A DNA stretch of 64,000 bases from Eledone cirrhosa (Eukaryota). The stretch spans positions 46,314,001 through 46,378,000 of the forward strand of contig OZ024746.1 of NCBI GenBank assembly GCA_964016885.1, written 5' to 3'. Positions within the stretch are counted from its first letter, which is position 1; the number at the start of each line of letters is the position of its first letter. Below, in pieces: positions 2,942-64,000 of this stretch. The notes beneath the pieces are model-generated. The model searched no databases, was not told the DNA's origin, and saw only the letters and a list, made by a program, of their open reading frames with translations. Position numbers and translations under genes: made by a program.

Positions 2942-3033
2942 TATATACATATATATATATGCATATATATATAGCGGCGATGAATTAGTTTTGCGAGGTT
3001 TTTTATATGAAATCGTGTGTCGAAACAGATATT

Positions 3034-3438
3034 GTTATATTTGGGGAGGGTCATATTTGCGTAATATTGCCAGAATTAATAACAGAACACACTCACTGTT
3101 TGGTTGGTTTTCGCTTCTCGCTGTCTTTTATATATATATATCTGCGATCTAACTTACTCGGTCCTCAATGTTGCCATTGACTGACCGGCGGTCAAAAATA
3201 ATACAGATGTAAACTGTAAATAATATTATGTAAACTATATATATATGTGTTTGTCTATATTGTATCTGTATTATTTTTGACCGCCGGTCAGTCAATGGCA
3301 GCATTGAGGACCGAGTAAGTTAGATCGCAGATATATATATATAAAAGACAGCGAGAAGCGAAAACCAACCAAACAGTGAGTGTGTTCTGTTATTAATTCT
3401 GGCAATATTACGCAAATATGACCCTCCACAAATATAAC
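3034..3438. repeat. Near-perfect inverted repeat (about 175-bp arms), probably a fold-back PLE end
   Basis: 3034-3208 is the reverse complement of 3264-3438. The terminal motif atgaccctcc..aa is shared with PLE ends at about 5870-5917 and 6490-6520. Confidence 0.85.
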
Positions 3439-3439
3439 C

Positions 3440-3472
<33 letters not shown>

Positions 3473-3582
3473 TACATATATATATGCATATATATACATA
3501 TGCATATATATTCATATATATATGCATATATATTCATATATATATACATATATATATATATATTTATATATATATACATATA

Positions 3583-3615
<33 letters not shown>

Positions 3616-4120
3616 GAACGGAAAAAATGAAACGAAATTTCATTTCCCACTCTTAGTACGGCTGTTACTTAAATATAAGTATGTATACGTACATACATAT
3701 ATGTATACAGGCGTACAGAAGTATGCATATATATATACATACATGCACACATATATATATATATGTACGTATGGATTCACCAAACATTTATTATAATGCT
3801 CGGTGTGTTTGTAAACAAACATCCCGTATAAAGCCGTACAGTGTCTAGCAACCATCGTTGCTCATTTCTTCAACACTGACAAAGGAACGCTGTACTAGTT
3901 TCAAGCTTATTAGCTATCGTCAGCAACGTATACCTTCCTGTCAGATGATTGAACGTCTGAAAGTATATACTTTCCTTATGCATATTAACGGCTGAGCAGC
4001 CTAATTTGCATATCGAGTGATTTAATCGCCCGGGATACCGAAAACGATAAATGGAAAAATTGAAACGAAATTTCATTTCTCACTCTTTGTGCGGCTGTTA
4101 CTTATATATAAGTATGTATA
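3616..4120 (-). mobile_element. Non-coding HHR retrozyme-like element, copy 1 (about 433-bp unit with terminal redundancy)
   Basis: gaaacgaaatttcattt repeats at 3629 and 4062. The element is homologous to 7081-7460 and 28938-29840, carries the HHR at 3887-3929, and has TA flanks. Confidence 0.8.
3887..3929 (-). ncRNA. Type I minimal hammerhead ribozyme
   Basis: Minus strand reads acgttg-CTGACGA-t-agct aata agct-t-GAAAC-ta-GTA-cagcgt, with a 6-bp stem I and palindromic stem III (actagt). Confidence 0.8.
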
Positions 4121-4154
4121 TATATGCCGTTAATATGCATATATATATATACAT

Positions 4155-4230
<76 letters not shown>

Positions 4231-5850: not shown

Positions 5851-5957
5851 TATATATATATATACATATATTGTTATACTTGGGGAGGCTCATATCTGTG
5901 TAATATTACCAGACTTAATATATATATACATATATATATACATATATATATATATAC

Positions 5958-6188: not shown

Positions 6189-6412
6189 TGAAGGCGTGTG
6201 GCTGAGTGGTTAGAGAATTGGATTCACAATCTTGAGATTGTGAGTTCGATTCCTAGACCGGGCAATGCATTATGTCCTTGAGCAAGACACTTTATTTCAC
6301 GTTGCTCCTTCTACCTGGAGTTGCGACCGATAGATAGTATTAGCAACTGGAAAGACCGACGAAAACATTGTTTCCGCGGTCCGATTTGACGAAAGTCGAT
6401 CAATAAAAAAAA
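6189..6412 (+). mobile_element. tRNA-derived SINE (family 2)
   Basis: A-box tggctgagtgg, B-box gttcgattc and the central block gtccttgagcaagacactttatttcac. Related copies are at 41455-41793 and 63390-63659. Confidence 0.8.
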
Positions 6413-6445
6413 ATATATATATATACATATATATATATACACACA

Positions 6446-6479
<34 letters not shown>

Positions 6480-6489
6480 CATATATATA

Positions 6490-7080
6490 TATTGTTATGC
6501 TTTGGGAGGGTCATGTTGCCAATAAGAAACACACGCACCAGTTGTTTCACTTCAATTTATTATAAATTAAATTTATAAATTTAGGAATTTATAAATTTCC
6601 GGTTGATTGGTTGGTTCTACAACCAGACGATTGTTCATATATTGTCAAAGTTCTTTCGTCACACATTCTGTGACCTCTTCAGTAATGTTATCTAGATACA
6701 TATGGCTTTAGCAACCTGCGCCCTACAAGATCAGCAAGAGGCAGACCACCTACCATTACCTCAATGCCCAAGAAAACCCAGATAGATGGATCGGCTAGAC
6801 CAGAGCCATACGGACCCCCGAAAACCACGATGAACTAAAGAAAATGATTGCACATGCAGTGGGGGCCCATATAAAATTAACCCTTAAGGAACATATGTTC
6901 AAATTTAATGGAAAACCCCAAGAGGAAGGAGCACCCATTGGTGTTAGCATTGCAGGTGACATAGCTAACCTATTCATGGTATGGTGGGACAATAGACTTA
7001 AACTTAAACTTAAAGAACAATTAGAAGACATCAACCTCTTAACCCTGATAATGTACTCACGCTACGTTGATGATATAAAC
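6490..7080. mobile_element. Penelope-like element fragment: inverted pseudo-LTR (minus, 6490-6695) plus RT fragment (plus, about 6700-7080)
   Basis: ORF 6844 onward has PLE RT motifs F.FNG..Q..GAPIG..IA..IANLFM and YSRYVDD. The minus-strand end carries an HHR core and an AATAAA. Confidence 0.85.
6644..6686 (-). ncRNA. Hammerhead core in PLE pseudo-LTR (stems I and III weak)
   Basis: Minus strand reads CTGAAGA-g-gtcaca gaatg tgtgac-GAAA, with a perfect 6-bp stem II. Confidence 0.55.
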
Positions 7081-7460
7081 AACGTTCAACTATCTGGCAG
7101 ATGGGTAAACGGTGCTGATGATAGCTAACAAGCTTGAAACTAGTACATCGTTCCTGTGTCAGTGTTGAACAAAAAGGTTACGTGGTTGCCTTAACACCGT
7201 ATGGCATAAATTCAGGCTGTTCGATTTGTTGACAAACAAACGAAAAAAGCAGGCGTTATAATAAACGTCGGCTAAACTGATGCGTGCATATATGTATGTG
7301 TACCTGTATGCATATGTGTATATATATGTATATATATATATATATATATGCATGCTACTGTACGTCTGTATACATATATGTATGTACGTATACATACATA
7401 CTTACATTTAAGTAAGTGCCATACTAAGAGTGAGAAATGAAATTTCGTTTTCATTTTTTT
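7081..7460 (+). mobile_element. HHR retrozyme-like element, copy 2 (5'-truncated, fused to Penelope RT)
   Basis: From aacgttcaac onward it is colinear with the unit starting at 29537. Confidence 0.8.
7109..7151 (+). ncRNA. Type I minimal hammerhead ribozyme
   Basis: acggtg-CTGATGA-t-agct aaca agct-t-GAAAC-ta-GTA-catcgt. Confidence 0.82.
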
Positions 7461-7507
7461 TCAACTTACATATATATACATATACATATATAAACATATA
7501 TATATAC

Positions 7508-8812
7508 ATCTTTTGGAAGAAGGTTTCTTCTGCGTCCTCATACTTGAACAGCTCTCTATCTAAAATCTGTAATCTCTGCCTAAATGAAAAAATTACCATT
7601 TTCTCTAATCTAGATTCTATAATAAATAGACGTACAGATTTGTTTTCTATCTGCTTGCATAAATTCCATAGGACTTTTCACAAAGTATACAGCTAATATT
7701 CAATTCTTTATCAATTTAGAATCTTTTCTCAAAGGCACATATACATACACCTCTTTATAATATACCCATCTTCCTACCTTACTTCAAAGGGCATTATACG
7801 CTCTATAATACTTGTTTACTCATTACCCTCATTCTATCTTCACCTTGTAAAATCCTTCATAACATATACATTTGTTTTTTTGACGTTAGAATATTCATCC
7901 GCAATTATTATTATTTTTTCTCTCCATCATCAAACTTTTTAATCTCAATACATTAACTCCCTCTCCTTCTTTTGACGCTAGAATATTCATCCTTAATTTA
8001 TTATTTTTCTCTCCCCATCAAATAACTCATTCTTAATACATATTAACTCCTTCTTCGCACATATTATCAATTCCTTCAATATACAAACCTTAACTTCACA
8101 TTATTTTTCTCAAATCATCTAATACACAAACCTTAATAATTTTTTAATACATATTAACTCATTCTTCGCACATATTATCAATTCCTTCAATATACAAACC
8201 TTAACTTCACATTATTTTTCTCAAATCCTTCAACACACAAACCTTAATAATTTTTTTCTCTTCGTTAATTTTGAAATTGCCATAATACTTATAAACATAC
8301 ACCTTTTTGACGTTAGAATATTCATCCGCAATTATTATTTTTTCTCTCTATCTTCAAACCTTTTAATCTCAATACATATCAACTCCCTCTCTTTCCTCGT
8401 ACATATTTTTCCCTTCGTTAATTTTCAAATTCTTTTAATTTATACATTATCTTCCAACGGTTTTCAACCTCTCTATGTAAAACAATATATCTTCTCTCAG
8501 TTATAAAAACTATCTCTTTCTCTCTACCACCCATCTCTCCCTCTCCACCTTCACTCTTATCTCCTCCCCTTTTTTTCATTCTTTCCACCCCCCCCCTCTC
8601 TAAATAAAATATTTTTCCCAATATCACACATCAATCTAAAACTACTTTTCATAAGTTGATTTAAAACTGCACTTTCCACAAGTGTTTTTTAGCCTTCATA
8701 TCATGTCCTCCTGTTTTATCTGATGAAAACACGAATATTATTGCATGATGATGTTTGTTTTTGAAATGCGCATAATAAAATACATGGAACTCCTTTAACC
8801 ATCTTTTGATCT
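7508..8812 (+). mobile_element. 5'-truncated Penelope-like element (GIY-YIG C-terminus, pyrimidine-rich repetitive 3'UTR, HHR)
   Basis: Translation W..VSSASSY....KICNLCLNEK..I......NRRTD....CLH (7513-7696) fits a PLE endonuclease tail (Naiad-like, inferred). It has internal repeats ttttgacgttagaatattcatc and a duplication of about 111 bp at 8035-8250, and TA flanks. Confidence 0.75.
8714..8780 (+). ncRNA. Type I hammerhead ribozyme (intact core)
   Basis: ttttat-CTGATGA-aaaca..tgttt-t-GAAA-tgcgc-ATA-ataaaa. Stem I is ttttat/ataaaa and stem III is the palindrome atgcgcat. Confidence 0.75.
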
Positions 8813-28874: not shown

Positions 28875-28935
<61 letters not shown>

Positions 28936-28939
<4 letters not shown>

Positions 28940-29052
28940 GGAATAGAATAGAATGAAACGAAATTTCATTTCTCACTCTTAGTACGGCACTTACCTAAAT
29001 GTAAGTATGTATGTATACGTACATACATATATGTATACAAACGTACAGTAGC

Positions 29053-29089
<37 letters not shown>

Positions 29090-29267
29090 CACACATATAT
29101 ATATGTACGTATCAGTTTAGCGAACATTTATTATAATGTTCGCTTTGTTCGTTTGTAAACAAACGGACAGCCTGGTTTTTGCCGTATGGTGTTAAGGCAA
29201 CCACGTCACCTTTTTGTTCAACACTGACACTGATACGTACATATATATATGTGTGCCTGTATGTATG

Positions 29268-29326
<59 letters not shown>

Positions 29327-29840
29327 GCTACTGTACGTCTGTATACATATATGTATGTACGTATACATACATACTTACATTTAAGTAAGTGCCGTACTAA
29401 GAGTGAGAAATGAAATTTCATTTCATTCTATTCTATTCCATTTATCGTTTTCGGTGCGCCTGGCCGACTGAACTCACTCGATATGCAAATTAGGCTGCTC
29501 AGCCGTTAATTTTCATAAGGAAAGTATATACTTTCGAACGTTCAACCATCTGGCAGAAGGTTATACGGTGCTGACGATAGCTAACAAGCTTGAAACTAGT
29601 ACATCGTTCCTGTGTCAGTGTTGAACTAAAAGGTGACGTGGTTGCCTTAACACCGTACGGCATAAATCAGGCTGTCCGTTTGTTTACAAACGAACAAAGC
29701 GAACATTATAATAAATGTTCGCTAAACTGATACGTACATATATATATGTGTGCCTGTATCTATATATATATATATATATATATATACATGCTACTGTACG
29801 TCTGTATACATATATGTATGTACGTATACATACATACTTA
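28936..29840 (+). mobile_element. HHR retrozyme-like element, copy 3: inverted partial copy (28936-29230) plus about 1.2 tandem units (29231-29840)
   Basis: tgatacgtacat recurs at 29231 and 29728 (period 497 including variable TA). The left part is the reverse complement of the unit. Confidence 0.85.
29565..29607 (+). ncRNA. Type I minimal hammerhead ribozyme
   Basis: acggtg-CTGACGA-t-agct aaca agct-t-GAAAC-ta-GTA-catcgt. Confidence 0.82.
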
Positions 29841-30171
29841 TATATATATATAGAGAGAGAGAGACATGGCTACAGACAGTCATACAACCACACTCACATA
29901 CACACAGTAATATCTACATAAGCTCACCTAAAGACACAGACTCACACTCATATATAAACACACTGAGGAGAAATAACATCATGCACAGTCATGAAATACA
30001 CTCCATCTGCACATACATAACTACACTAATGATAGACCCAGATTCTCCATTTTGGGCCCCCACTCCACATGCCACATTACTTGTTTGTCTGCCTCACTCA
30101 TAAAAAAAAGCTTCTTTCTTTTTTTTTCAACCTTCCATCCTCCTCTTTCTGCAAACATAACTTGTTATTTT

Positions 30172-35049: not shown

Positions 35050-35325
35050 GGGTCACTCTTGAATGCTACTGGTAACATGTAACCCAGTACAACCTGTCAC
35101 CTGATCAGGTCGTCGGTGACTAAACCGGCAACCCCACCAAGTGGTAAGGAACCAGATGGACCATAACGCACCAGAGTATTCAATACTTAGTGTAGTAGAG
35201 TGGGTAATAGGAAAATGTTTGAACCCGACGGCAGAGCTCAAGCCATTTTGCCGGCTATTTCTGGACTCCAGAAATAGCCGGCGAAACGGCTTGAGCTCTG
35301 CCATCGGGGTCAAACATTTTCCTAT
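35050..35325 (-). mobile_element. Fold-back PLE end: 119-bp near-perfect hairpin (35207-35325) plus tail
   Basis: The arms contain the HHR 3' half GAAAC-ggc..gcc-(G/A)TC. The tail is shared with the copies at 9907 and 41811. Confidence 0.7.
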
Positions 35326-37000
35326 ATATATATATATATATATATATATGGGGTTTGTACAGTTTCCTTCTTTCATTTTCACCCATGATACATTAGTTAG
35401 CCCAAGGTTACAGTAGAAGAAACTTGCCCATGGTTTCATGAAGTGAAGTAGATCCCAAGACCACACAACCAGGCCTATGCTCATTTTAAATACCAATATT
35501 ACTAATGATGGATAAAAATAAAGAATAAAAGAAAAACTTTCTTCATCGATTGGGTATAACAAAAATTATATTTATGTAATTTATATATCCAATTTAACTA
35601 GCTTGAAAGTATATCAGTTGCAAATAAATGGTTTCCTCTTGGGTGTTTGGATCTAAATAAGTCTAAGACCTGATAAGATTACTTTCATTTTGGGCATCTA
35701 ATACATTGTAAAAGATACCTCGATGGGGAGTTCATAACTATTCTCTTGATACCTACATGATTAGTAATTAGCTAGCTGATCAGATAGTTAATACTATATA
35801 ACAGGTAACAACATGCAAATATAGTTTCTTTCTTTGATATGTTTAGATTAATATTATCTCCTTTAATACTTTTATACTCTTGAGTTCCAATTTCAATTCA
35901 GTTCTGTCATTTTGATTAAAAATTAAAGCAAATTACTATGTATAAACATACAAAGCAGAGAATTAAACATTTATAGTCTTCAATCCAAAATAATGGGCAA
36001 ATTTGCAACTGGGCATTAAGGAACTCTTGTGGTTATTATAACTAAAACAACAACTACTACTTCTATTGTTGCTGCTACTACTACTACAAATAATAAAAAT
36101 GATAATTGCTGATTTAGGCAATGGGGGGGGGGGTCGATTAAATCGACCCCAGTCTATTACTGATACTTTATTTTGCCAGCCCCACAAGGATGAAAGTTAA
36201 AGCAAAGTACTTATTTTCCTTACGGTCAAAATTTCATAGTTCATAAACCAGAGCAAAGAAACCGATCTAAGCAATGGTTTATTGATTACCAATGCAAGGA
36301 AAATATGTACTTCTTCCTAAATATTATATGCTTTATATATATGTCAAAATAGTATGTATTTCTCTTATGATATATGGCTCTTTCTATATTTTTTTTTTTT
36401 ACTACCACATGTAATTTCATTAATATATGTCTGTGTATGTCAACCACGTAAATATATATATTAAGCTTTTCCTTAGACTCTGTTTGATATTTGATATTAA
36501 CGTTGTTATATCATATCATTTTTATGTAATCGTATTATAGATTTTAATATATGTTATTTGAAGTACTGTTCTGTTATATTTTGTAATATTTTGTGATATT
36601 TTAGTTAAGTTTATGCCAATGTAAAATGACTTGACCTCTGTGTATTTGTTGCAATGGTATAGATATTTTTTCAACACAATTTTTTCAACACAATTTAGTT
36701 CTATATGATTTTTTTTCTTACCCTGTGTAAAACTTTATACTATTTGTTAACCTTGAATTATATATATGATGGAATTTTGTATATCTTTTGATGCCAATAT
36801 ATTATAATATTGTTATTATAATGTTATTATAATGTTTTTATATTGTTTATGCACACTGACAGGGAATTATATATTATATTTTATTTTTATTTTTATCTTT
36901 ATTCTTATTTTTATCTTTACTATATTATACTGTAAACAATATATATATATATATTTAAATACTTAATAAGTGTTAGTTTGTGTTTGTACTAATGTATATA

Positions 37001-37034
<34 letters not shown>

Positions 37035-37037
<3 letters not shown>

Positions 37038-40000
37038 ATGGATGGACTACGGAATTCTGGAGAGTTGAAGAGAGAAAAATGTGGACGCTCAGCGACAATG
37101 CCAAAGATAAAGACAAATTCACCTCGTGGACGAGAATGCAAGCACTCCGCCTTGTTTCGGCCCAGGATGGCTAACATAACCCCATCCCCCCCCCCCGTGC
37201 CCCACCGCTCCCACCTTCCAAACGCAATCCAAAACTTCAGAGTTGGTACCATGAATGTAGGCACCTTAAAGGGTCGCTCTAACGAGGTTGTAGAAATGCT
37301 TGAACGTAAGGAGGTCGATGTTTGTTGTATTCAAGAGACCACGTGGAGGGGAGGGTCGGCTAGATTCATCGTGGGTAAAGAACGATGCTATAAGCTTTTC
37401 TGGGTGGGAAATGACAATGGGTTGGGTGGGGTAGGAATCATGGTAGCAGAAAAGTGGGCAGATAAGATAATAGACGTAAATAGAGTGAACGACAGAATAA
37501 TTAAAATAAGACTTGTCCTCAATAAAACTACGGTGACAGTAATATCTGCGTACGCACCACAATCCGGACTGCCCGGTGCTATAAAAGACAGATTCTACGA
37601 GACACTGATGCTCGCTACCTCCCAAATAACCGACAGTGACTATATAATTATTGCAGGCGACCTAAATGGTCACGTTGGACAACATTGTGACGGCTATGAC
37701 GGAATCCATGGAGGCTATGGGTTCGGTACTAGAAATGAGGAAGGCTCCAGAATCCTGGAATTCTGCGATGCAAATAACTTAACTATCTGTAACACTAACT
37801 TCAAAAAACGAGACAATCACTGGATCACCTATAGATCGGGGGAACACACAAGCCAGGTAGATTATATCCTTACCAGAAGACGTGACAGAGTGTCTGTTGT
37901 TAACACTAAATCCCTCCCCCATAAAGAATTCACCTCCCAACATAGACTGATAATTAGCGACCTCATAGTCAGGACGAGACGTACTAGACAGCGGAAGACG
38001 ACTATCCTCAGGAGAAAAATATGGAAGCTAAAGGACCCCATAGCCAGAAATAAATTTCAAAGCATATTACTTGACGCTTTCGACAGTAAGGAAGAGCAAT
38101 TAGAGTCGTATAATATAGAGGAACAGTGGGAATTCCTGAGAGCAAACCTGCTGACGGCGGCAGACGAAGTCTGTGGCTGGAGCAGGCCTGTAGGTAGGAG
38201 GAGAGTAACATGGTGGTGGAACAGTAAGGTGGAGGAGTCAGTTAAGGCCAAAAAGCAGGCTTGGAAAGCATGGCGGGATGGGGGAAGTAGAGAAGACTAT
38301 CAAGTGGCCAGGGGGGAAGCTAGGAGACAAGTGTACTTCGCAAGAAGGGAAGCAGAGGAAAGAAAGTTCAAGCATGTTCTACAACGTGAGGACCAAAAAC
38401 GTGAGGTGTTCAGGATTGCCAGGCAATGTGTCAAGGAAAACCGTGATATTGTCGGGGAGAAGTGTGTACTTAACGATGATGGCATACTTGCCATCACCGA
38501 CGCTGATAAGAAGGTAGCTAGGAAGTGTCACTATGAAAGGCTTCTAAATGAGGAGAACAAATGGGAGAAAGACAGTCTCCCCCACATCGACCCAATAGAG
38601 GGACCAGCAGTGTTAGTCCAGGGTAGTACAATAAGCAAGGCAATCAAAGATATGAAGACGGGTAAGGCGGCTGGTCCTTCGGAAATAGTTGCTGAGATGC
38701 TGAAGGCATCTGGTTCGGTGGGACACACCATGGTCACCCGGATAGTTAACCAAGTCGTACAGAATGGGGTTGTTCCGAAGGACTGGCGTAGCAGCATCAT
38801 CGTTAACTGCTATAAGGGAAAAGGAGATGCCCTAGATAGGAGTAACTATAGAGGCATTAAATTAATCGACCAGGTCATGAAGGTCACGGAAAAAGTAATA
38901 GCGCAACTAATCAGAGAGAGAATTGATCTAGATGAAATGCAGTTCGGATTTGTGTCAGGCAAAAGTACCACAGACGCTCTTTTCATTGTACGACAACTAC
39001 AGGAGAAGTACCTAACTAAAAGTAAACCCCTATACTTAGCTTTCATCGACTTGGAGAAAGCCTTCGACAGAGTCTCCCGTTCCATTATCTGGTGGTCTCT
39101 TAGAAAACTAGGTGTTGACGAATGGCTTGTGAGAGCTATACAAGCCATGTATAAAGAAACAGTCAGTAAGGTTAGAATTAACAACGAATATAGTGAAGAG
39201 TTTAGCGTAAAAGTTGGTGTCCATCAGGGCTCTGTTCTTAGCCCCCTAATATTTATTATTGCCCTTCAGGCTATAACAGTGGAGTTCAAGACCGGCTGCC
39301 CATGGGAACTCCTATACGCAGATGATCTAACGCTCATAGCTGAATCAATGACCGAACTAGAGAAGAAATTCCAAACATGGAAGCACGGCCTAGAATCAAA
39401 AAGCCTTAAAATTAACCTGGCTAAGACTAAAGTTCTAGTTTGTAGGAAAGAAAATAAGGCGGCAGTCCCATCTGGGAAATGGCCATGCTCAGTGTGTAGG
39501 AAAGGCGTAGGTAGAAACTCCATTTTATGTCCCAAATGCAAAGTATGGGTGCATAAAAGATGTAGTGGGATCACAAGATGTAGTGGGATCACAGGTAAGC
39601 TAACTAAGAACATAGATTTTACATGTGGCCGGTGCTCTGGTGCAATAAGTAGCAGCAAGTGCCCACAAATACTAGCTCCTTCAACTGCGCAGAGGGTTCT
39701 ATAGAAATAGTGGACAGCTTCTGTTACCTGGGTGACAAAATCAGCAGTGGGGGAGGGTGCTCTGAAAGTACAGTAGCTAGAGTCAGAACAGGATGGAAAA
39801 AGTTCAGAGAGCTTATACCACTATTAGCCGCTAGAGGTTTCTCCCTAAAAATGAAAGGCAGGTTATACGATGCCTGCATACGAACAGCAATGCTGCATGG
39901 CAGTGAGACCTGGGCATTGTGTGCAGAGGATATACGCAGACTAGAGAAGAACGAAGCTTGCATGCTCCGCTGGATGGGCAATAGTAATATACGTGAACGG

Positions 40001-41126: not shown

Positions 41127-41164
41127 GCCCTGATGAGACCTTAATAGGATGAAACATTGTTGGC
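41127..41164 (+). ncRNA. Minimal type I hammerhead motif in a PLE end (about 40830-41320)
   Basis: gcc-CTGATGA-ga-cct taat agg-at-GAAAC-att-GTT-ggc, followed by aataaa. Confidence 0.6.
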
Positions 41165-41454
41165 TAATAAAGACTTTTGATGTATTGAAGGCTTCTTTGG
41201 TTTATTTTTTATAATTCTTCGGCTCTGTTTAATTACATTGAGCTATATCTTATACTGTCATTTCTATAATATGAAGAGGGTGTTTAACTCCAACACACTC
41301 TAGTATTTTAATTCTTATATATATATACACATATATCTTTTAAGTTGAATTATTGATGCTCTAGACAAATATCCATTGAGCTTTTCTGCTGAGAAACATA
41401 ACCATCATACATATTATATATGTTATCAAACCTGAACTAATATATATATATGTA

Positions 41455-41793
41455 TGGAGGCACATGGCTTAGTGGTTAGAGCATTGGCCTTGCAATCAAA
41501 AGGTTGTGAGTTCAATTCTCAAGTTTCCTTGAGCAAGACACTTTATTTCACATTGCTCCAGTTTACTCAGCTGTAGAAATGAGATGATAGGGACCGGGGT
41601 CCATATCACTCCACTGCAATGTGGTCGTGGAGGTGCCACGGCAAAAAAAGCACCCAGCACTCACTGTAAATGAGGTTGGTGTTAGGAAGGCCATCCAGCT
41701 GTAGAAATCAAGCCAGAATCAATTCCTCCCCCCCCCCCTTGCAAGCAGGGAAAAAGCGGACGTAAAATGAAATGATGATGAAATGATGATGAT
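41455..41793 (+). mobile_element. tRNA-derived SINE (family 2 head) with RTE-derived 3' tail
   Basis: Head tggcttagtggttagagc..gagttcaattc, block ccttgagcaagacacttt, tail ggttggtgttaggaaggccatccagctgtag..(gat)n. Confidence 0.8.
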
Positions 41794-42101: not shown

Positions 42102-42420
42102 ATAATATGGAAAATGAAGAACCGGTGATGCATCGAAACACAATTTATTAATGTATTACAATTGTTTCTCCGGCGAACAGCTCGAGGTACGATCTATTTG
42201 TGGATCAAACCTGACTCTGAATTTGCAAGTTCCTCAGATATGTCTAGCGACTTCAAAGATTTGCTCCGAAGTTGCTAGCCGTATCTGAGGAACTTGAGAA
42301 TCCAGAGTCAGGTTCGATCCACAAATAGATCGTGCCTCGAGCTATTTACCGGAGAAACAATTGTAATATGTTAATAAATTGTGTTTCGATGCATCACTGA
42401 GTCTTCGTTTTCCATATTAT
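42102..42420. mobile_element. Inverted pair of PLE ends (arms of about 153 bp), each with a hammerhead
   Basis: 42102-42254 is the reverse complement of 42268-42420. Confidence 0.8.
42280..42370 (+). ncRNA. Type I hammerhead with extended domain II (about 60 nt)
   Basis: cgtat-CTGAGGA-..-GAAAC-aatt-GTA-atatg. The mirror copy is on the minus strand at about 42152-42243. Confidence 0.55.

Positions 42421-49275: not shown

Positions 49276-49345
<70 letters not shown>
48787..49345. repeat. (TA)n/(TATGCA) compound microsatellite (others at 5918-6185, 51792-52525, 52778-53010, 53863-54128)
   Basis: Read directly from the sequence. Confidence 0.95.
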
Positions 49346-49346
<1 letters not shown>

Positions 49347-49430
49347 AAAGTTCTATTTAAAGTTGTTGGGATACAACAAGTAAATATTTTTATAACTGAT
49401 ATAAAGCACTCGACAAATTTTTGGAGTAGA

Positions 49431-51155
49431 TATACGATATTAATAAATGGAAACTATATTTATAAAACCATATTTATTTCATTATACATATTTCAGGGAT
49501 GCCACATTAAATTATGGTATGCCTTCATCAGACAAAATACAATATATAACAGTTTTACAAATAGCTTTGACGTACCCTTTTACAATACAACCATTACTTT
49601 CGGGGGCTGTCTGGATTGTGATTTGTTTATATAATAAGTCATAGTGTTAAGCACAATTAGAAAAAGACGGAGGGAAAGAAAAAAGACGGGTTTTTTAAAT
49701 TTTTTAAATCTTTTAAATTATTTTTATTTACTTGTTTTGATTATGATAGCTTCTCATAACTTTCACAAGTCTACCCTCTCAATATCTTGATTGAGATCTA
49801 CGTAGGATAAATTTCTATACTAAATATATAAAACATATTATTTTAACTTAAGATGCTCTATAGTGTTTTAATGATATTTAATGCTTTGATATTTCTAGAT
49901 TTCTTTTGACTATATAGTTGCATTTCCAAAATATATTCCTTTGGTATTTTAAATTTATATTGTTATGGTTATATTTACAAATTATAATCCTTTGGTAATT
50001 TATTGATATTGGATTATCTCTATACAAATGCATATGTGTGTATTAACATGCATAGAAAGTGTTATAGATTGTTTGTGTTTGTATATGTGTCTGTATATAT
50101 ACATGAGTGATGCATGATGACGCACGCAAATATTTATTTATACATATGTATGTGTATATATGTATGTGTATATATCTGTGGTTGAGAGGTATGTTGCAGA
50201 TATGCATAATATTAAACACATGAATGGTAATCGTATATATGAGGACATGATTGTTAATCGTATATATTTGTATATATATACTGTGAAATTTTTATAACAC
50301 AAGGAATGTATAGCAGTGATTAAGAGAAATCATTTACGTTTTGTATGGCTATATTGTTGGCTTGAGTAAACATAATTTCTATTTTCAGGACGTGCGTATC
50401 TATATGTATGTATATATACATATATATTTGTATGTCTTTGCATAAAATACTAATCTCTATAACAAGGGTACATTTTGAACTCAGATTTTGGTATATTCAT
50501 CTCAAGTTTCTAAACTAAACATATGGTCATTATTGAACAATATTTAATTTCTCATATTATATATCTATGTCCCATTCATGAATATTGATACTTATATTTA
50601 TATTTTTATTATTCATTTCATATAAATTGTTAACTCAACTTAATATGACATGACGTAAAGTTGTCACTATCCCCCCCCCCCCTCTCTCTATATAATATTT
50701 CTCTCTCTTGAGTTTTTATTTCTGTATGATGACTTGATATCTCTCTGTTGCTTTCCTTTGTTTTTCTTATTCCTTCTTTTTCTTTCTTTTTTATTTCCTC
50801 CTATCTTTATTTATCTCTTTCTTTTCTCCATACATTTCTCTCTCCGATATTTCTCCAGGTTTCCTTTCTCTCTCTCCGTCTTTGTTCTTTTCTCTCTCTC
50901 CGTCTTTTTTCTTTCTCTCCATCTTTTTCTAGTTGTGCTTAACACTATGACTTATTATATAAACAAATCACTATCCAGACAGCCTCCAAAAGTAATGGTT
51001 GTATTGTAAAAGGGTACGTTAAAGTTATTTGTAAAACTGTTATCTTGTATTTTGTCTGATGAAGGCATACCATAATTTAATGTGGTATCCCTGAAATATG
51101 TATAATGAAATAAATATGGTTTTATAAATATAGTTTCCATTTATTAATATCGTAT
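49431..51155 (+). mobile_element. PLE-type non-coding element with inverted terminal copy (49431-49690 versus about 50870-51155)
   Basis: The arms are reverse complements and both carry an HHR. Confidence 0.78.
51050..51110 (+). ncRNA. Type I hammerhead ribozyme (mirror copy on minus strand at 49477-49537)
   Basis: ttttgt-CTGATGA-agg c ataccat..gtggtat c cct-GAAA-tatgt-ATA-atgaaa. Confidence 0.72.
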
Positions 51156-54128: not shown

Positions 54129-55918
54129 ACGATTCACCGAGCACCTCCGGGATATTCGTCTCGGGGTAGTTCCCCCATCGCCCGCCACTTTGGTGGCCCT
54201 GGACATTCCGCACGCCATCTCACAGTCTGTGGCCTACTCCAGAGCCACTGAACACCCGCCAATCGCCTTACGGTCGAACAACGAACTATCTTCATCTTAC
54301 AGACCCACACTCCCCCCGGCCTGAACTCCCCACCCTTATTCCTTTAGCCTTCGACCGTCCCCTCTCCCACACTTACACCCCACTAACACCACTAACACAC
54401 CCCTCCTTTTCACCGCCCACCCACAACTAACAATACTAACACCTCCACTCCACCCCTCATCTGACCACCCTTCCCCAACTAACATACTAACATCCCTCCC
54501 TTCTTCTCCTCCTCCCCCCTCCTTATCACACGCACACATCCACCGGCACATATATACACGCGCTCACACTAAACACACACCCTACTACCATCACTAACCC
54601 TCACCCCCACACCTCTCACCCCCACACCTCCATCCCACCACCCCGCAACTAACCTCACTAACACCCCCTAACCCCAAGCACACGAACACACGCACCCACT
54701 TACACCACCCACCCCACACGCAACTAACATCACTAACACCCCCCAACCCCACGCACACGTGCCCACACACCCTCGTACACCACCAACTCTACACACCCCA
54801 CCACCACTAAAGCCCCACTCACACCTGCATTCAACCCCTCCCCATCTCCCGTATACTAACACCCCTTCATCAAACTACACACACACCAGTACACCACACT
54901 CCCTCCATAGAACCACACACACCCTTCTCTCCCCGCTCCACCCACACCCTCGCTCCACACTCACTCATCCCACTAACACCTCTACTAATACACACACACA
55001 CACCCTCCTCACTCCAACTTTCACACCTACCCATCCTCGCCCCTTTACCATTCCACCGACTGCTGCTATGCCCTCTGCCACCTCCCAGCACAAACAGACA
55101 CAGCACTCCCACTGCTTGACCACTTCCTGTTGCGCGCGCACCCCACATCTCTCCTCTTCCGACCGTCGCTTCATGGAATACGCGCACGCAGAAATTGACC
55201 AACACAAAATCCGCTATACACCTTTGGAATTTACCTACTTTTCAACCATCCTCTTACGTAATCACCTATATAACTCACCAAACATTTTTTCTTCACACGC
55301 CACCTACACCCACAACACGCTTAAACCCCCACACACACGTGCTTTCCACCACATATTTACACCCCCAGCCTCCTGATTCCTCTCCCTCCACCCCTCTATC
55401 CACACACGCACAGACACTCCGACCCCCCCCCCACACAACCTCTTCCTGAACATGCAACCCCGTTCTTCCCCCAACCCTTACTTTCACATACACACACACA
55501 CACCACCTTCAGCCCTCCCCGCTCGGACACCCCATCTCCCTCTCCCCACTCCATCCGCCACCACCCCTACACACCCCACACCCTTCCACCACCTGTTTTA
55601 CCTCCCTTTTAATTTCAGTTTATTTTGATCATGCTTTTATATTTAAATTTATTTCATTCCTTGTAACTTGATCATGTTTTATTTTTATTTTTATCTTTAT
55701 TTTTTTATTTTTTCATTCGCACCGTTTCCTTTCGCTATATGTCTCTCCACCATTCCCCTACACACCCTTTGAACTCTGTTCCCACACACTTCTCACCTGA
55801 GGAAGGGCTTATTCCCGAAACGTCGTCCCCCACCAACACCCCACTCTCCAGAGCGTGAAATTAATAAACATTCGTTGTACTGCCTCTCTGTTTTGTCCCT
55901 GTTCAAATTTTTCCATTA
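54129..55918 (+). mobile_element. 5'-truncated Penelope-like element (Neptune-like GIY-YIG C-terminus, C/A-rich UTR, HHR core)
   Basis: [10 protein letters not shown]../PIARHF..PGHS..LTVCGL..R..EQR.IF.LQT..PPGLN across a frameshift and a stop. CTGAGGA-a-ggg cttatt ccc-GAAAC-gtc-GTC at 55797-55827, then AATAAA. Confidence 0.85.
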
Positions 55919-55929
55919 TATATATATAT

Positions 55930-57252
55930 CTAAGGCGGGTAAAATTCCCGAGATCCATGGACGAGTTCTCTCCAGCGGTCTCTGTCCCTCATTATCGCTG
56001 CCATATCCTGCATCTCCAACAGACCAGTGTCTGTCCTTAGGGCATCAACATATGTTAACCTTGGTCTTCCTCTTCTAGTGTGTCCATGTAGGGGCTCCCA
56101 AAGGAGCACTGAGTGCAATGTCAACTCTGGATGTCGGTGAGCATGTCCAGCCAATCTCAGTCTCCTCTGTGTCACTTTTGAGCTGACTTTTGGGATGCTC
56201 CCATACAGCTCCGAGTTTTTCATCCTCAGTGTATACTGATTAATGTTCAGAGCCATCCTCAGCATTCTCGTGTAGCACCCATCCACCATCTGAGTGAGTC
56301 TCTTGGTCAGTGTCCAAGTCTCAGACCCATACAGCAGCACAGACTCCACTACAGCAATGAAGAGGCGGATTTTCAGGTCTCTACGAAGGTCCGACTTCCA
56401 CACCGATCTCAAGCTGTGACACGCCGCCCAGGCCTTGCTCTTCCTCTCAACCACATCATCTTCCGTATTCCCAATCTTTGCTGCCAAATACAGGAAGTCC
56501 TCAACCAATTCCAGCGGGTTCCCGCCTACATTAGTGATCCCCTCTGGCTTCTCAACATTCTCTACCAGATATTTTGTTTTAGTCTCATTCATTCTCAGCC
56601 CTACACTCATCGACACAGTCTCAACCTCCCGCATCAAATCCTCTGCCTCCTTCAATGTATTTGTCACCAAAACTATGTCGTCGGAAAATTCAGCATCCGA
56701 TACCTTTTTCGCCCCAACTCTCCTGCTCTGAGCCAGTGCCACAGTAAAGCCAGAGTCCTGGTGTTTCTCCAGTGCAAGGCGCATACAATAGTCCACTACG
56801 ATGATAAAAAGGTAGGGAGCCAATGTATCTCCCTGGAGCACTCCAGCCAGTATCTCAAAGAACTCTGTCATCCCATCAGGTGTAATGACTTGGGCTTTGG
56901 TGTTGGTGTAGAGCAGTGATATCAGGTCCACTATCCTCTTGGGGATTCCATAAGCCTGTAAGATCTTCATCAGGCAGTAACGGTCCACAGAATCAAAGGC
57001 CTTCCTAAAGTCAATGAAAACCATGACCGCAGGAAGGCACTTTGCTCTAGCTCCCTCTAATATCCTCCTCAGCATCAGGATGTGACTGGTGGTTGATCTA
57101 CCCTCTCTGAAGCCGTTCTGGTTGTCCCTGAGCTTCTTCTCCATCTCAGGCCGGATCCTGTTAAGAATCATCCTGTTGAGGGTCTTTGCCACAAGTGACG
57201 TCAGTGAGATCCCCCGGTAGTTGTTGGTGTTAGAGAGATCTCCCTTCTTTGG

Positions 57253-57255
<3 letters not shown>
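55930..57255 (-). mobile_element. 5'-truncated RTE-type LINE (second family) with open RT frame of about 440 aa
   Basis: [44 protein letters not shown] (sister copy FADD), LYGSETW and RGRP. TA repeats on both sides. Confidence 0.93.
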
Positions 57256-57325
<70 letters not shown>

Positions 57326-57422
57326 TATATATATATATATATATGCATATATATATATATACATATATATATAGATAGTTAGATAAATGTAGACGGGTGT
57401 GTATGATTGTGTATAGAAGATT

Positions 57423-57657
57423 ATATTAATATGAGGAATTCCAACTTTGTCTGATTTACTCATTTTATTTACAATCCTTTAAAATTTATAATGGTATCAT
57501 AATGAAATAGTATGATAGAATATTAAATTATAAGTGTTAATTAACACTTAGAATTTAATATTCTATCATACTATTTCATTATAATACCATTATAAATGTT
57601 AAAGGATTGTAAATAAAACGATTAATCAGACAAAGTTGGAATTCTTCTTATTAATAT
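57423..57657. repeat. Spacerless imperfect palindrome of about 235 bp
   Basis: Centre aagtgttaa|ttaacactt at 57540/57541, with reverse-complement arms. Confidence 0.85.
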
Positions 57658-63389: not shown

Positions 63390-63659
63390 TACAGTCATAA
63401 AGAATATCGACAGTCGATCGACTAGATCCTAGACCACTTAACGAGTGGGGTGGAGCTTGTCAAATCGGACAAAGGAAACAATGTTTCCATTGGTCTTTTC
63501 AATTGCTAATACTATCTATTGGTCACAAATCCAGGTAGAAGGAGCAACATGAAATAAAGTGTCTTGCTCAAGGACATAATGCATCGACCAGTTCAGGAAT
63601 CAAACTTACAACCTCATGATTGCGAATCCAATTTTCTAACCACTCAGCCACATGCCTTC
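63390..63659 (-). mobile_element. tRNA-derived SINE family 2
   Basis: Reverse complement of 6189-6390 (head, ccttgagcaagacacttt, gatagtattagcaa tail). Confidence 0.8.
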
Positions 63660-64000
63660 ACTATCAAGAATATATACAGCTATAAAACTTTATCCTCCAT
63701 ACGCAGTAATAACATATAAAGGAAAAAAACATTTGCTTTGTCAAAAAATACTTGACTTTATTATTAGAGAAGATATTTCATGCAACCTGTTAACTAAATC
63801 AAAACCAAAAACTAAGTTCGCTCTAGATAATACTTTAGCTGTTTTCAGTTACTGATTGTTTCTTTAAAGCAACATTTGTTCATATATCTGGAAAGAGAAA
63901 GCTGTTTTACACACGCACACACACAAATAATATCATCCAAACTAGATTTTGTCAAATGGATATATGACTAATAGGCAAAGATTTCATTCATCAATACATC

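Follow-up and report, generated by a model that had tools for sequence, protein, structure and literature searches.

Inverted, 5′-truncated copies and a bias for (TA)n targets form the standard insertion layout of PLEs, as described in the available text of PMC8557442. In Adineta vaga, the accessible parts of PMC3846280 describe or propose both capture of sequence between pLTRs and template jumps for PLEs; the same source interprets palindromes at inverted PLE junctions as self-priming, and reports element-specific termini with no cross-mobilisation found between PLE types. In the portion available of PMC11167929, both strands at AT-rich DNA are nicked and extended by a purified PLE protein, which also uses uncleaved RNA and for which a dimer is predicted. 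PLEs have also been proposed as the mobilisers of metazoan retrozymes (PMC7229834, in the text accessible). In the available part of a Xenopus study, 24 of 57 retrozyme families match transposable elements, 21 of the 22 elements being PLEs, and the link is argued from pLTR homology (10.64898/2026.07.22.740005). To go by the accessible text of these reports, co-occurrence and pLTR homology are the grounds on which a mobiliser is assigned to animal retrozymes, and the mechanism is not demonstrated. The ribozymes have been described in two forms: PLE minimal hammerheads have a long helix II, an extra base after A9, G10.1-C11.1 and a helix I of 4-5 bp, and canonical hammerheads have a helix I of 6 bp, a helix II of 4 bp and a short palindromic helix III (available sections of PMC4209133). 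Fusion of a retrozyme to RT coding sequence is not described in the available text of PMC7229834 or of 10.64898/2026.07.22.740005, the latter containing the string "chimer" in a reference only. A literature search covering titles and the beginnings of abstracts, with most subscription papers outside its scope, returned no account of a fusion between a PLE RT and a retrozyme, nor of retrozymes in octopus.

The locus described here is a composite block of three parts between two TA tracts (Table 1). It lies in a 64-kb stretch of DNA, the window that we analysed, which is TA-rich, contains no Ns, resolves TA tracts of 270 bp and carries many RTE-type LINE fragments and SINEs. Both 3′ termini of the block face outward, each flush with TA, and no TA separates the arms: a sequence scan found no TA run of at least 3 units within 6493-7283. 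The original prediction had outlined a TA-flanked block in which an inverted PLE end with a hammerhead core is followed by PLE RT coding sequence ending in YVDDIN, then, at about 7081 and with no TA spacer, by an abrupt switch into a retrozyme, with no RT resuming downstream. This anatomy was confirmed, with the left arm refined to 6493-6683, the switch placed at 7080/7081 and both flanking tracts located. The block is a dead, non-coding composite, present as a single copy; it is a fragment-bearing variant of the known PLE insertion anatomy, with unlike arms. Its left target is the TA tail of a tRNA-like SINE, further copies of which were found by self-blast at 63459-63660 and 41440-41559.

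Table 1. Parts, junctions and target tracts of the composite block, in positions of the window
Feature	Position	Strand	Basis
Left (TA)n target tract	6411-6492		Sequence; 80% TA; tail of a tRNA-like SINE (~6190-6410)
Inverted 3′ end, PLE-type family A	6493-6683	-	Terminus abuts TA; contig loose ends at 6683; terminal motif
Minimal PLE-type hammerhead, family A	6644-6683	-	Core 6682-6654
Junction 1, ~5 nt of likely filler	6684-6688	+	Protein homology begins at 6689; filler status inferred
Decayed PLE RT fragment ending in YVDDIN	6689-7081	+	Protein homology to P0001
Junction 2, RT to family B	7080-7081	+	~1 nt overlap, without spacer
Complete hammerhead domain, family B	7084-7170	+	Fold significance; canonical type I geometry
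5′-truncated family B unit with internal TA repeats, 3′ terminus abutting TA	7081-7468	+	Copies at 28925-29846 and 3603-4222
Right (TA)n target tract	7469-7509		Sequence

The left arm belongs to a PLE-type family, family A, whose terminal motif is common to copies at 3054, 3418 and 5893. Its terminus is similar to that of the 3029 copy (p = 0.0005), and the termini of A-type subfamilies are likewise similar to one another (p of 0.005 or less). The hammerhead core, read on the minus strand from 6682 to 6654, has a helix II of 6 bp and an extra nucleotide after A9; by these sequence features the predicted ribozyme fits the PLE minimal hammerhead type of PMC4209133. The arm is 5′-truncated 1 nt above the core, and the junction cuts off the 5′ arm of helix I, which is 4 bp in other copies as inferred from the consensus of their loose ends. 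We compared the block with contigs from four of 23 public runs (X1-X4). Contigs of other copies depart from the window sequence at 6683 (144, 171, 158 and 15 contigs in runs X1, X2, X3 and X4, respectively), which fixes the position of junction 1. A palindrome centred on 6693/6694 is lengthened by the filler of about 5 nt, and no other palindrome as large occurs in the 397-bp RT piece; this palindrome is a possible trace of fold-back synthesis.

The RT piece best matched P0001 from Octopus vulgaris (63%, E = 1.9e-23; 17 of 68 candidates matched), aligning in two frames from 6689 to about 7081-7086 with residues 379 to about 507-509 of that protein; by this match the genome is octopus-like. The RT piece is a fragment, not an element. 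Its decay shows in a frameshift (near 6781-6787), a single stop, the loss of 6 nt near 6911-6916 and two gains of 6 nt each near 6993-7031. The GIY-YIG endonuclease is absent from this copy, which stops at YVDDIN. Pfam RVT_1 matched with an E value of 1.9e-4, below the curated cut-off, and searches of PDB and NCBIfam were uninformative. We found 348 relatives at E ≤ 0.001. In 10 long relatives the RT is followed by a short CxxC linker and then by C-terminal GIY-YIG-type motifs, and 12 relatives have a P.LN..EWG-type end; by eye, the short linker and this end resemble the Nematis rows in the supplement of PMC8557442. The putative PLE label of the fragment comes from the architecture of its relatives and from resemblance to those supplementary alignments rather than from a PLE-specific model. 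In the supplement as available, where some long runs are incomplete, neither short motifs of A or B nor peptides of the RT clade have a match. Two of three relatives from metagenome contigs end about 90 nt past a hammerhead-like core, in (TA)n.

Downstream of the junction no RT resumes: tblastn with 166 relatives gave 177 HSPs from 164 queries, all within 6655-7125. There were 143 HSPs that ended past 7060, comprising 104 that ended at 7080-7086, 20 that ended earlier and 19 that ran on to 7092-7125. We rejected these 19 extensions into family B as a continuation of the RT; they are gapped and of low identity, and other B copies have no significant protein match. No annotated protein of RT-plus-B length was found, the B-derived peptide occurred in none of the 166 relatives, and scans of genome-contig and viral-contig collections for the RT or the B ribozyme returned no match.

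At junction 2, the blastn alignment to the family B copy at 29537 begins at 7081. The upstream sequence proper to B appears as a loose end before 7081 in 7, 13 and 5 contigs of runs X1, X2 and X3. Family B carries a different base at 7080, and one RT-only contig aligns through 7081, its next base being unaligned; together these observations set the overlap at about 1 nt. Among relatives with N at the junction position, 57 of 82 continue with I, M, T, N or K, all of which have codons starting with A. The microhomology that the original prediction had suggested seeking at 7075-7090 amounts to about 1 nt only.

Junction 2 falls at a predicted boundary in the folded B RNA. Both full B copies contain a perfect palindrome of 16 bp, which ends 1 nt short of the position equivalent to 7081 (hairpin pair probabilities of 0.87-0.99 and 0.81-0.97), and a 4-nt single-stranded linker lies between this hairpin and the outer helix of the hammerhead domain. 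The junction is within the linker, 1 nt past the hairpin and 3 nt outside the base of the folded domain, so that the ribozyme domain (7084-7170) is complete in the chimera and all B sequence 5′ of it is lost. The whole domain (7081-7180) folds at -28.9 kcal/mol (z = -2.71; 2 of 200 shuffles were as good); shorter folds of 76-79 nt from three B copies were not significant (z of -0.9 to -1.8). By a post hoc count, 13 of 401 and 12 of 435 B positions, about 3%, are at most 3 nt from such a stem on its 3′ side. The location of junction 2 at this modelled boundary would favour a jump at the RNA level; because the hairpin alone is weak (-3.2 kcal/mol) and was noticed after the fact, its support for a stall and jump of the RT is modest. 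Junction 2 lies 65 nt upstream of the predicted cleavage site of B, and the family A arm extends 35 nt beyond its own predicted site.

Family B is a hammerhead tandem repeat of 430-500 bp with internal TA repeats and a fixed 3′ terminus. Over the non-TA part, the copy in the block is identical to the 29537 copy at 178 of 197 bases and to the 3956 copy at 148 of 185. Both of the other copies in the window are partial tandems of about 1.4 units, and in both full copies what lies upstream is a further B 3′ end instead of an ORF; no window copy of the family contains two complete ribozymes in direct tandem. The ribozyme in the block, with its core at 7115-7139 and predicted cleavage after 7145, has canonical type I geometry, with a helix I of 6 bp, a helix II of 4 bp and a short palindromic helix III. 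It is predicted to self-cleave and fits the canonical retrozyme type of PMC4209133. Since A fits the minimal PLE type and B the canonical type, the earlier labels of PLE and retrozyme stand, the downstream part being a non-coding tandem unit with a canonical type I hammerhead. On B copies none of the 166 relatives gave a significant match (best E = 0.7). U-U replaces G10.1-C11.1 in all three B ribozymes (7115-7139, 29571-29595 and 3923-3899). All three also have a self-complementary helix II, and are possibly dimeric. Against Rfam, the B hammerhead scored 18.5 bits with HH9, below the gathering score of 52, and the B copy at 29340-29740 had no hammerhead match; for the whole window, the matches listed (150 of 299) were TA-repeat look-alikes below threshold and included no hammerhead.

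The B copy at 28925-29846 is an insertion with a PLE-style inverted arm (junction at 29230/29231; arms identical at 127 of 131 bases), and to judge from this copy the retrozyme-like unit appears to integrate like a PLE. PGRLN can be read near the start of both full B units (29458-29475 and 4036-4019), with several third-position differences. The peptide may descend from the endonuclease end of a PLE; it needs two 1-nt indels to align, has no database support and shows no DNA-level match to family D, a PLE-like family described below.

Contigs bridging 7081 were absent among the pieces listed (32 of 28,979). At 6719 and 7245 no compared contig has the letter found in the window, so the locus is apparently absent from runs X1-X4. 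Among the joints listed (15 of 68), none links A, RT and B, and four are within-family inversions. One joint from 7081 to 7189, on opposite strands of one contig, was not counted as a hotspot and may be an edge effect. All three parts of the block carry private letters. Near-fixed differences from other copies amounted to 2/191 in A, 12/397 in the RT piece and 4/200 in B among the rows listed (40 of 91), figures that are of similar order and too rough for dating. Summed contig depth, which does not give copy numbers, reached plateaus of about 1e6 for A, 1e5 for RT and 1e6 for B.

We also compared 3′ termini. The B end has no similarity to the A end (p = 0.32-0.35) and was not significant at all three lengths in stricter scoring. 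Against the 3′ ends of L001 and L002, two relatives of the RT, A and the B end at 7468 both gave p values of about 0.07. A has 7 letters of a 13-letter motif common to L001 and L002 (p = 0.034; for B, p = 0.97), and the hammerhead-like core of L002 resembles that of A. Under stricter scoring, B against L002 gave p values of 0.02-0.33 and A against either relative 0.15-0.91; the signal by which the shared 3′ motif had tied A to the relatives of the RT was lost, and the terminus of this RT may be either A or B. For one of four B ends, 15 of 16 columns agree with the end of family D at 55918 (p = 0.002-0.005), the other three not being significant; comparison with the end of family C at 51152 gave p values of 0.002-0.42 depending on copy and length. 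At the level of sequence, the 3′ end of B thus seems to match these two ribozyme-bearing families of the window better than it matches A, and the usual mobiliser of B may therefore be another PLE.

Family D (54131-55918) is represented by a PLE-like copy that is 5′-truncated. This copy retains an endonuclease end in degraded form (54177-54341) and has a C/A-rich tail of 1.4 kb and, at 55797, a hammerhead-like core; its terminus resembles that of family B, for which family D is a candidate partner. Its endonuclease piece has no database relative, carries a Neptune-like label by eye only and is unlike the relatives of the RT in the block. Family C (49344-51152) has inverted 255-bp arms that are 95% identical, with hammerhead-like cores at 49531 (minus) and 51056 (plus). 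These arms, one of them with a tail of about 90 nt, enclose about 1.2 kb of unrelated DNA, a possible case of capture between pLTRs. An A-type inverted pair at 2973-3451, in the TA tract that also contains the B copy at 3603-4222, has arms identical at 186 of 195 bases, one with an extra tail of about 55 nt, the PLE tail signature. At 5864-5920, with a TA tract on either side, is a short remnant of a third A-type 3′ end. Isolated hammerhead-like cores of other families occur at 41130 and 11747, and short inverted-arm blocks without a canonical hammerhead core at 57373-57653, 42102-42420 and 35207-35325. The window further contains a 903-aa ORF of an RTE-type LINE at 36993-39701, with related fragments including 406-1957, and a 482-aa RT ORF of another LINE family on the minus strand at 55933-57378.

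How did the block form? We give an even chance to a single Penelope-type insertion during which cDNA begun on retrozyme RNA jumped to PLE RNA. An endonuclease would nick both strands of a TA tract. One nick would prime synthesis on the 3′ end of family B RNA, which would be copied through its uncleaved hammerhead domain until the hairpin adjoining that domain on the 5′ side stalled synthesis; on about 1 nt of pairing, the cDNA would then jump to PLE RNA at a point right after the YVDD codons, and synthesis would stop about 400 nt later. Family A RNA would be primed at its 3′ end by the other nick, and the head-to-head union of both cDNAs would include a short fold-back filler. A two-arm, two-RNA insertion of this kind is feasible given that purified PLE protein nicks and extends both strands. 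Speaking for one insertion, the layout of outward 3′ termini is also found, with like arms, at 2973-3439, 28925-29846 and 49344-51152. The overlap of about 1 nt is counted for a jump because PLE-inactivating deletions in Adineta are microhomology-mediated, as described in the available text of PMC3846280. Against it, an internal jump requires a broken or internally primed acceptor RNA, and at 3029-4222 elements of the A type and of family B occupy one TA tract independently, so that adjacency without co-mobilisation does occur. PMC3846280 is a further point against, its PLE types having termini of their own and no type being seen to mobilise another. A substantial, if smaller, chance goes to two events, in which a 5′-inverted PLE copy came first, B inserted later in its downstream TA tail, and the intervening DNA (about 1.5-2 kb) was lost. 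On the same footing, the loss between YVDDIN and 7081 would have taken place during the insertion of B or by later end-joining deletion. Both families target TA, as the A-type pair and B copy in the one tract at 3029-4222 illustrate; the B terminus is unrelated to that of A and resembles those of D and C; the joints listed (15 of 68) include none across parts; and the RT piece already has several indels. This history nevertheless has to accommodate a multi-kb deletion that used about 1 nt of homology and stopped exactly at an RNA structural boundary, a placement that about 3% of positions have, and the parts show no visible age gap among the rows listed (40 of 91). The single insertion with a template switch, as originally predicted, is the slightly better reading, with some help from that boundary, and the rival deletion is nearly as likely.

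We consider it unlikely that B, not A, is the terminal repeat of the RT family itself or a direct derivative, with A a foreign arm and RT plus B an internally deleted copy. Retrozymes of Xenopus match PLE pLTRs in the available text of 10.64898/2026.07.22.740005, the 3′-end test against L001 and L002 did not separate A from B, and PGRLN at the unit start of both full copies is like an endonuclease end; on the other hand, the hammerhead of A is of the minimal PLE type and that of B of the canonical retrozyme type, both full copies follow a B 3′ end instead of an ORF, B has no significant match from the 166 relatives, and it is A that has 7 letters of the 13-letter motif (p = 0.034, against 0.97 for B) and a core like that of L002. 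More improbable still is an assembly misjoin of a PLE copy and a B copy. It would agree with the lack of a bridging contig among the listed pieces and with the trouble that inverted PLE structures give assemblies (PMC8557442, available text), but misjoining calls for sequence in common, of which the junction has about 1 nt; the window is moreover without Ns and resolves TA tracts of 270 bp, and the private letters in all parts are like those of an aged genomic copy. RtcB-type ligation is associated with U6-L1 chimeras, and both families here carry hammerheads, yet we find it barely credible that RNAs were ligated at ribozyme-cut ends and then reverse transcribed. The positions of the breaks, 65 nt upstream of the B site and 35 nt past the A site, mean that both cDNAs cross uncut or resealed ribozymes, which largely refutes such a ligation.

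Even if the block formed in a single insertion, the acting RT need not be the one that it contains, as a read-through transcript of an existing inverted PLE locus could have been copied. The further claim of the original prediction, that the retrozyme is here physically linked to its autonomous partner, is not supported: the B end is unlike A, families C and D match it better, and none of the 15 joints listed (68 in all) connects the parts. One copy of a chimera does not establish which transposon habitually mobilises the repeat, and the block is not yet evidence of a PLE-retrozyme partnership. We put forward, as a tentative and somewhat doubtful proposal, that a PLE insertion complex, plausibly a dimer, carries its own RNA together with retrozyme RNA, one primed per strand, with the jump at the edge of the hammerhead domain. 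If this were true, mixed-arm insertions would be genomic fossils naming, family by family, the PLE that mobilises each retrozyme. If there was one insertion, the block marks the co-occupancy of one insertion complex; should mixed insertions recur, genome-wide counts would pair each retrozyme with an RT family and test two-strand, two-RNA integration by PLEs. A lone dead copy is a lead for such a genome-wide count, nothing more.

Set beside the described systems, the block is closest in layout to insertions of EN+ PLEs such as Neptune and Nematis (PMC8557442 and PMC3846280, in their available parts), with which it has in common head-to-head arms, outward 3′ termini and a (TA)n target. It is also like them in the minimal hammerhead within an arm, in the palindrome at the inverted junction, and in that the relatives of its RT have the CxxC linker and GIY-YIG-type motifs (10 long relatives). 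It is unlike them in that its arms come from different families, a retrozyme-like unit replacing the thumb, endonuclease and matching pLTR. Like the metazoan non-LTR retrozymes in the accessible text of PMC7229834 and 10.64898/2026.07.22.740005, family B is a non-coding tandem unit with a canonical type I hammerhead found alongside PLEs; unlike them, it has internal TA repeats, a fixed 3′ terminus, a PLE-like inverted arm and U-U at G10.1-C11.1. In the trans-capture by PLEs of Adineta vaga (PMC3846280, available text), foreign sequence is likewise joined into a PLE insertion and template jumps are invoked, but both termini there belong to one family, whereas in the block one terminus is itself foreign. 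The direct fusion that marks a template-switch chimera is present here, with little homology (about 1 nt) and no TA spacer. The LINE chimeras, as given in the available text on the tripartite elements of Magnaporthe (PMC2104539) and on R2/R1 hybrids (PMC3414825), are like the block in the direct fusion of different RNA copies; those are products of LINE machinery, whereas the block carries a PLE RT fragment and sits in (TA)n, where a target-site duplication is unreadable.
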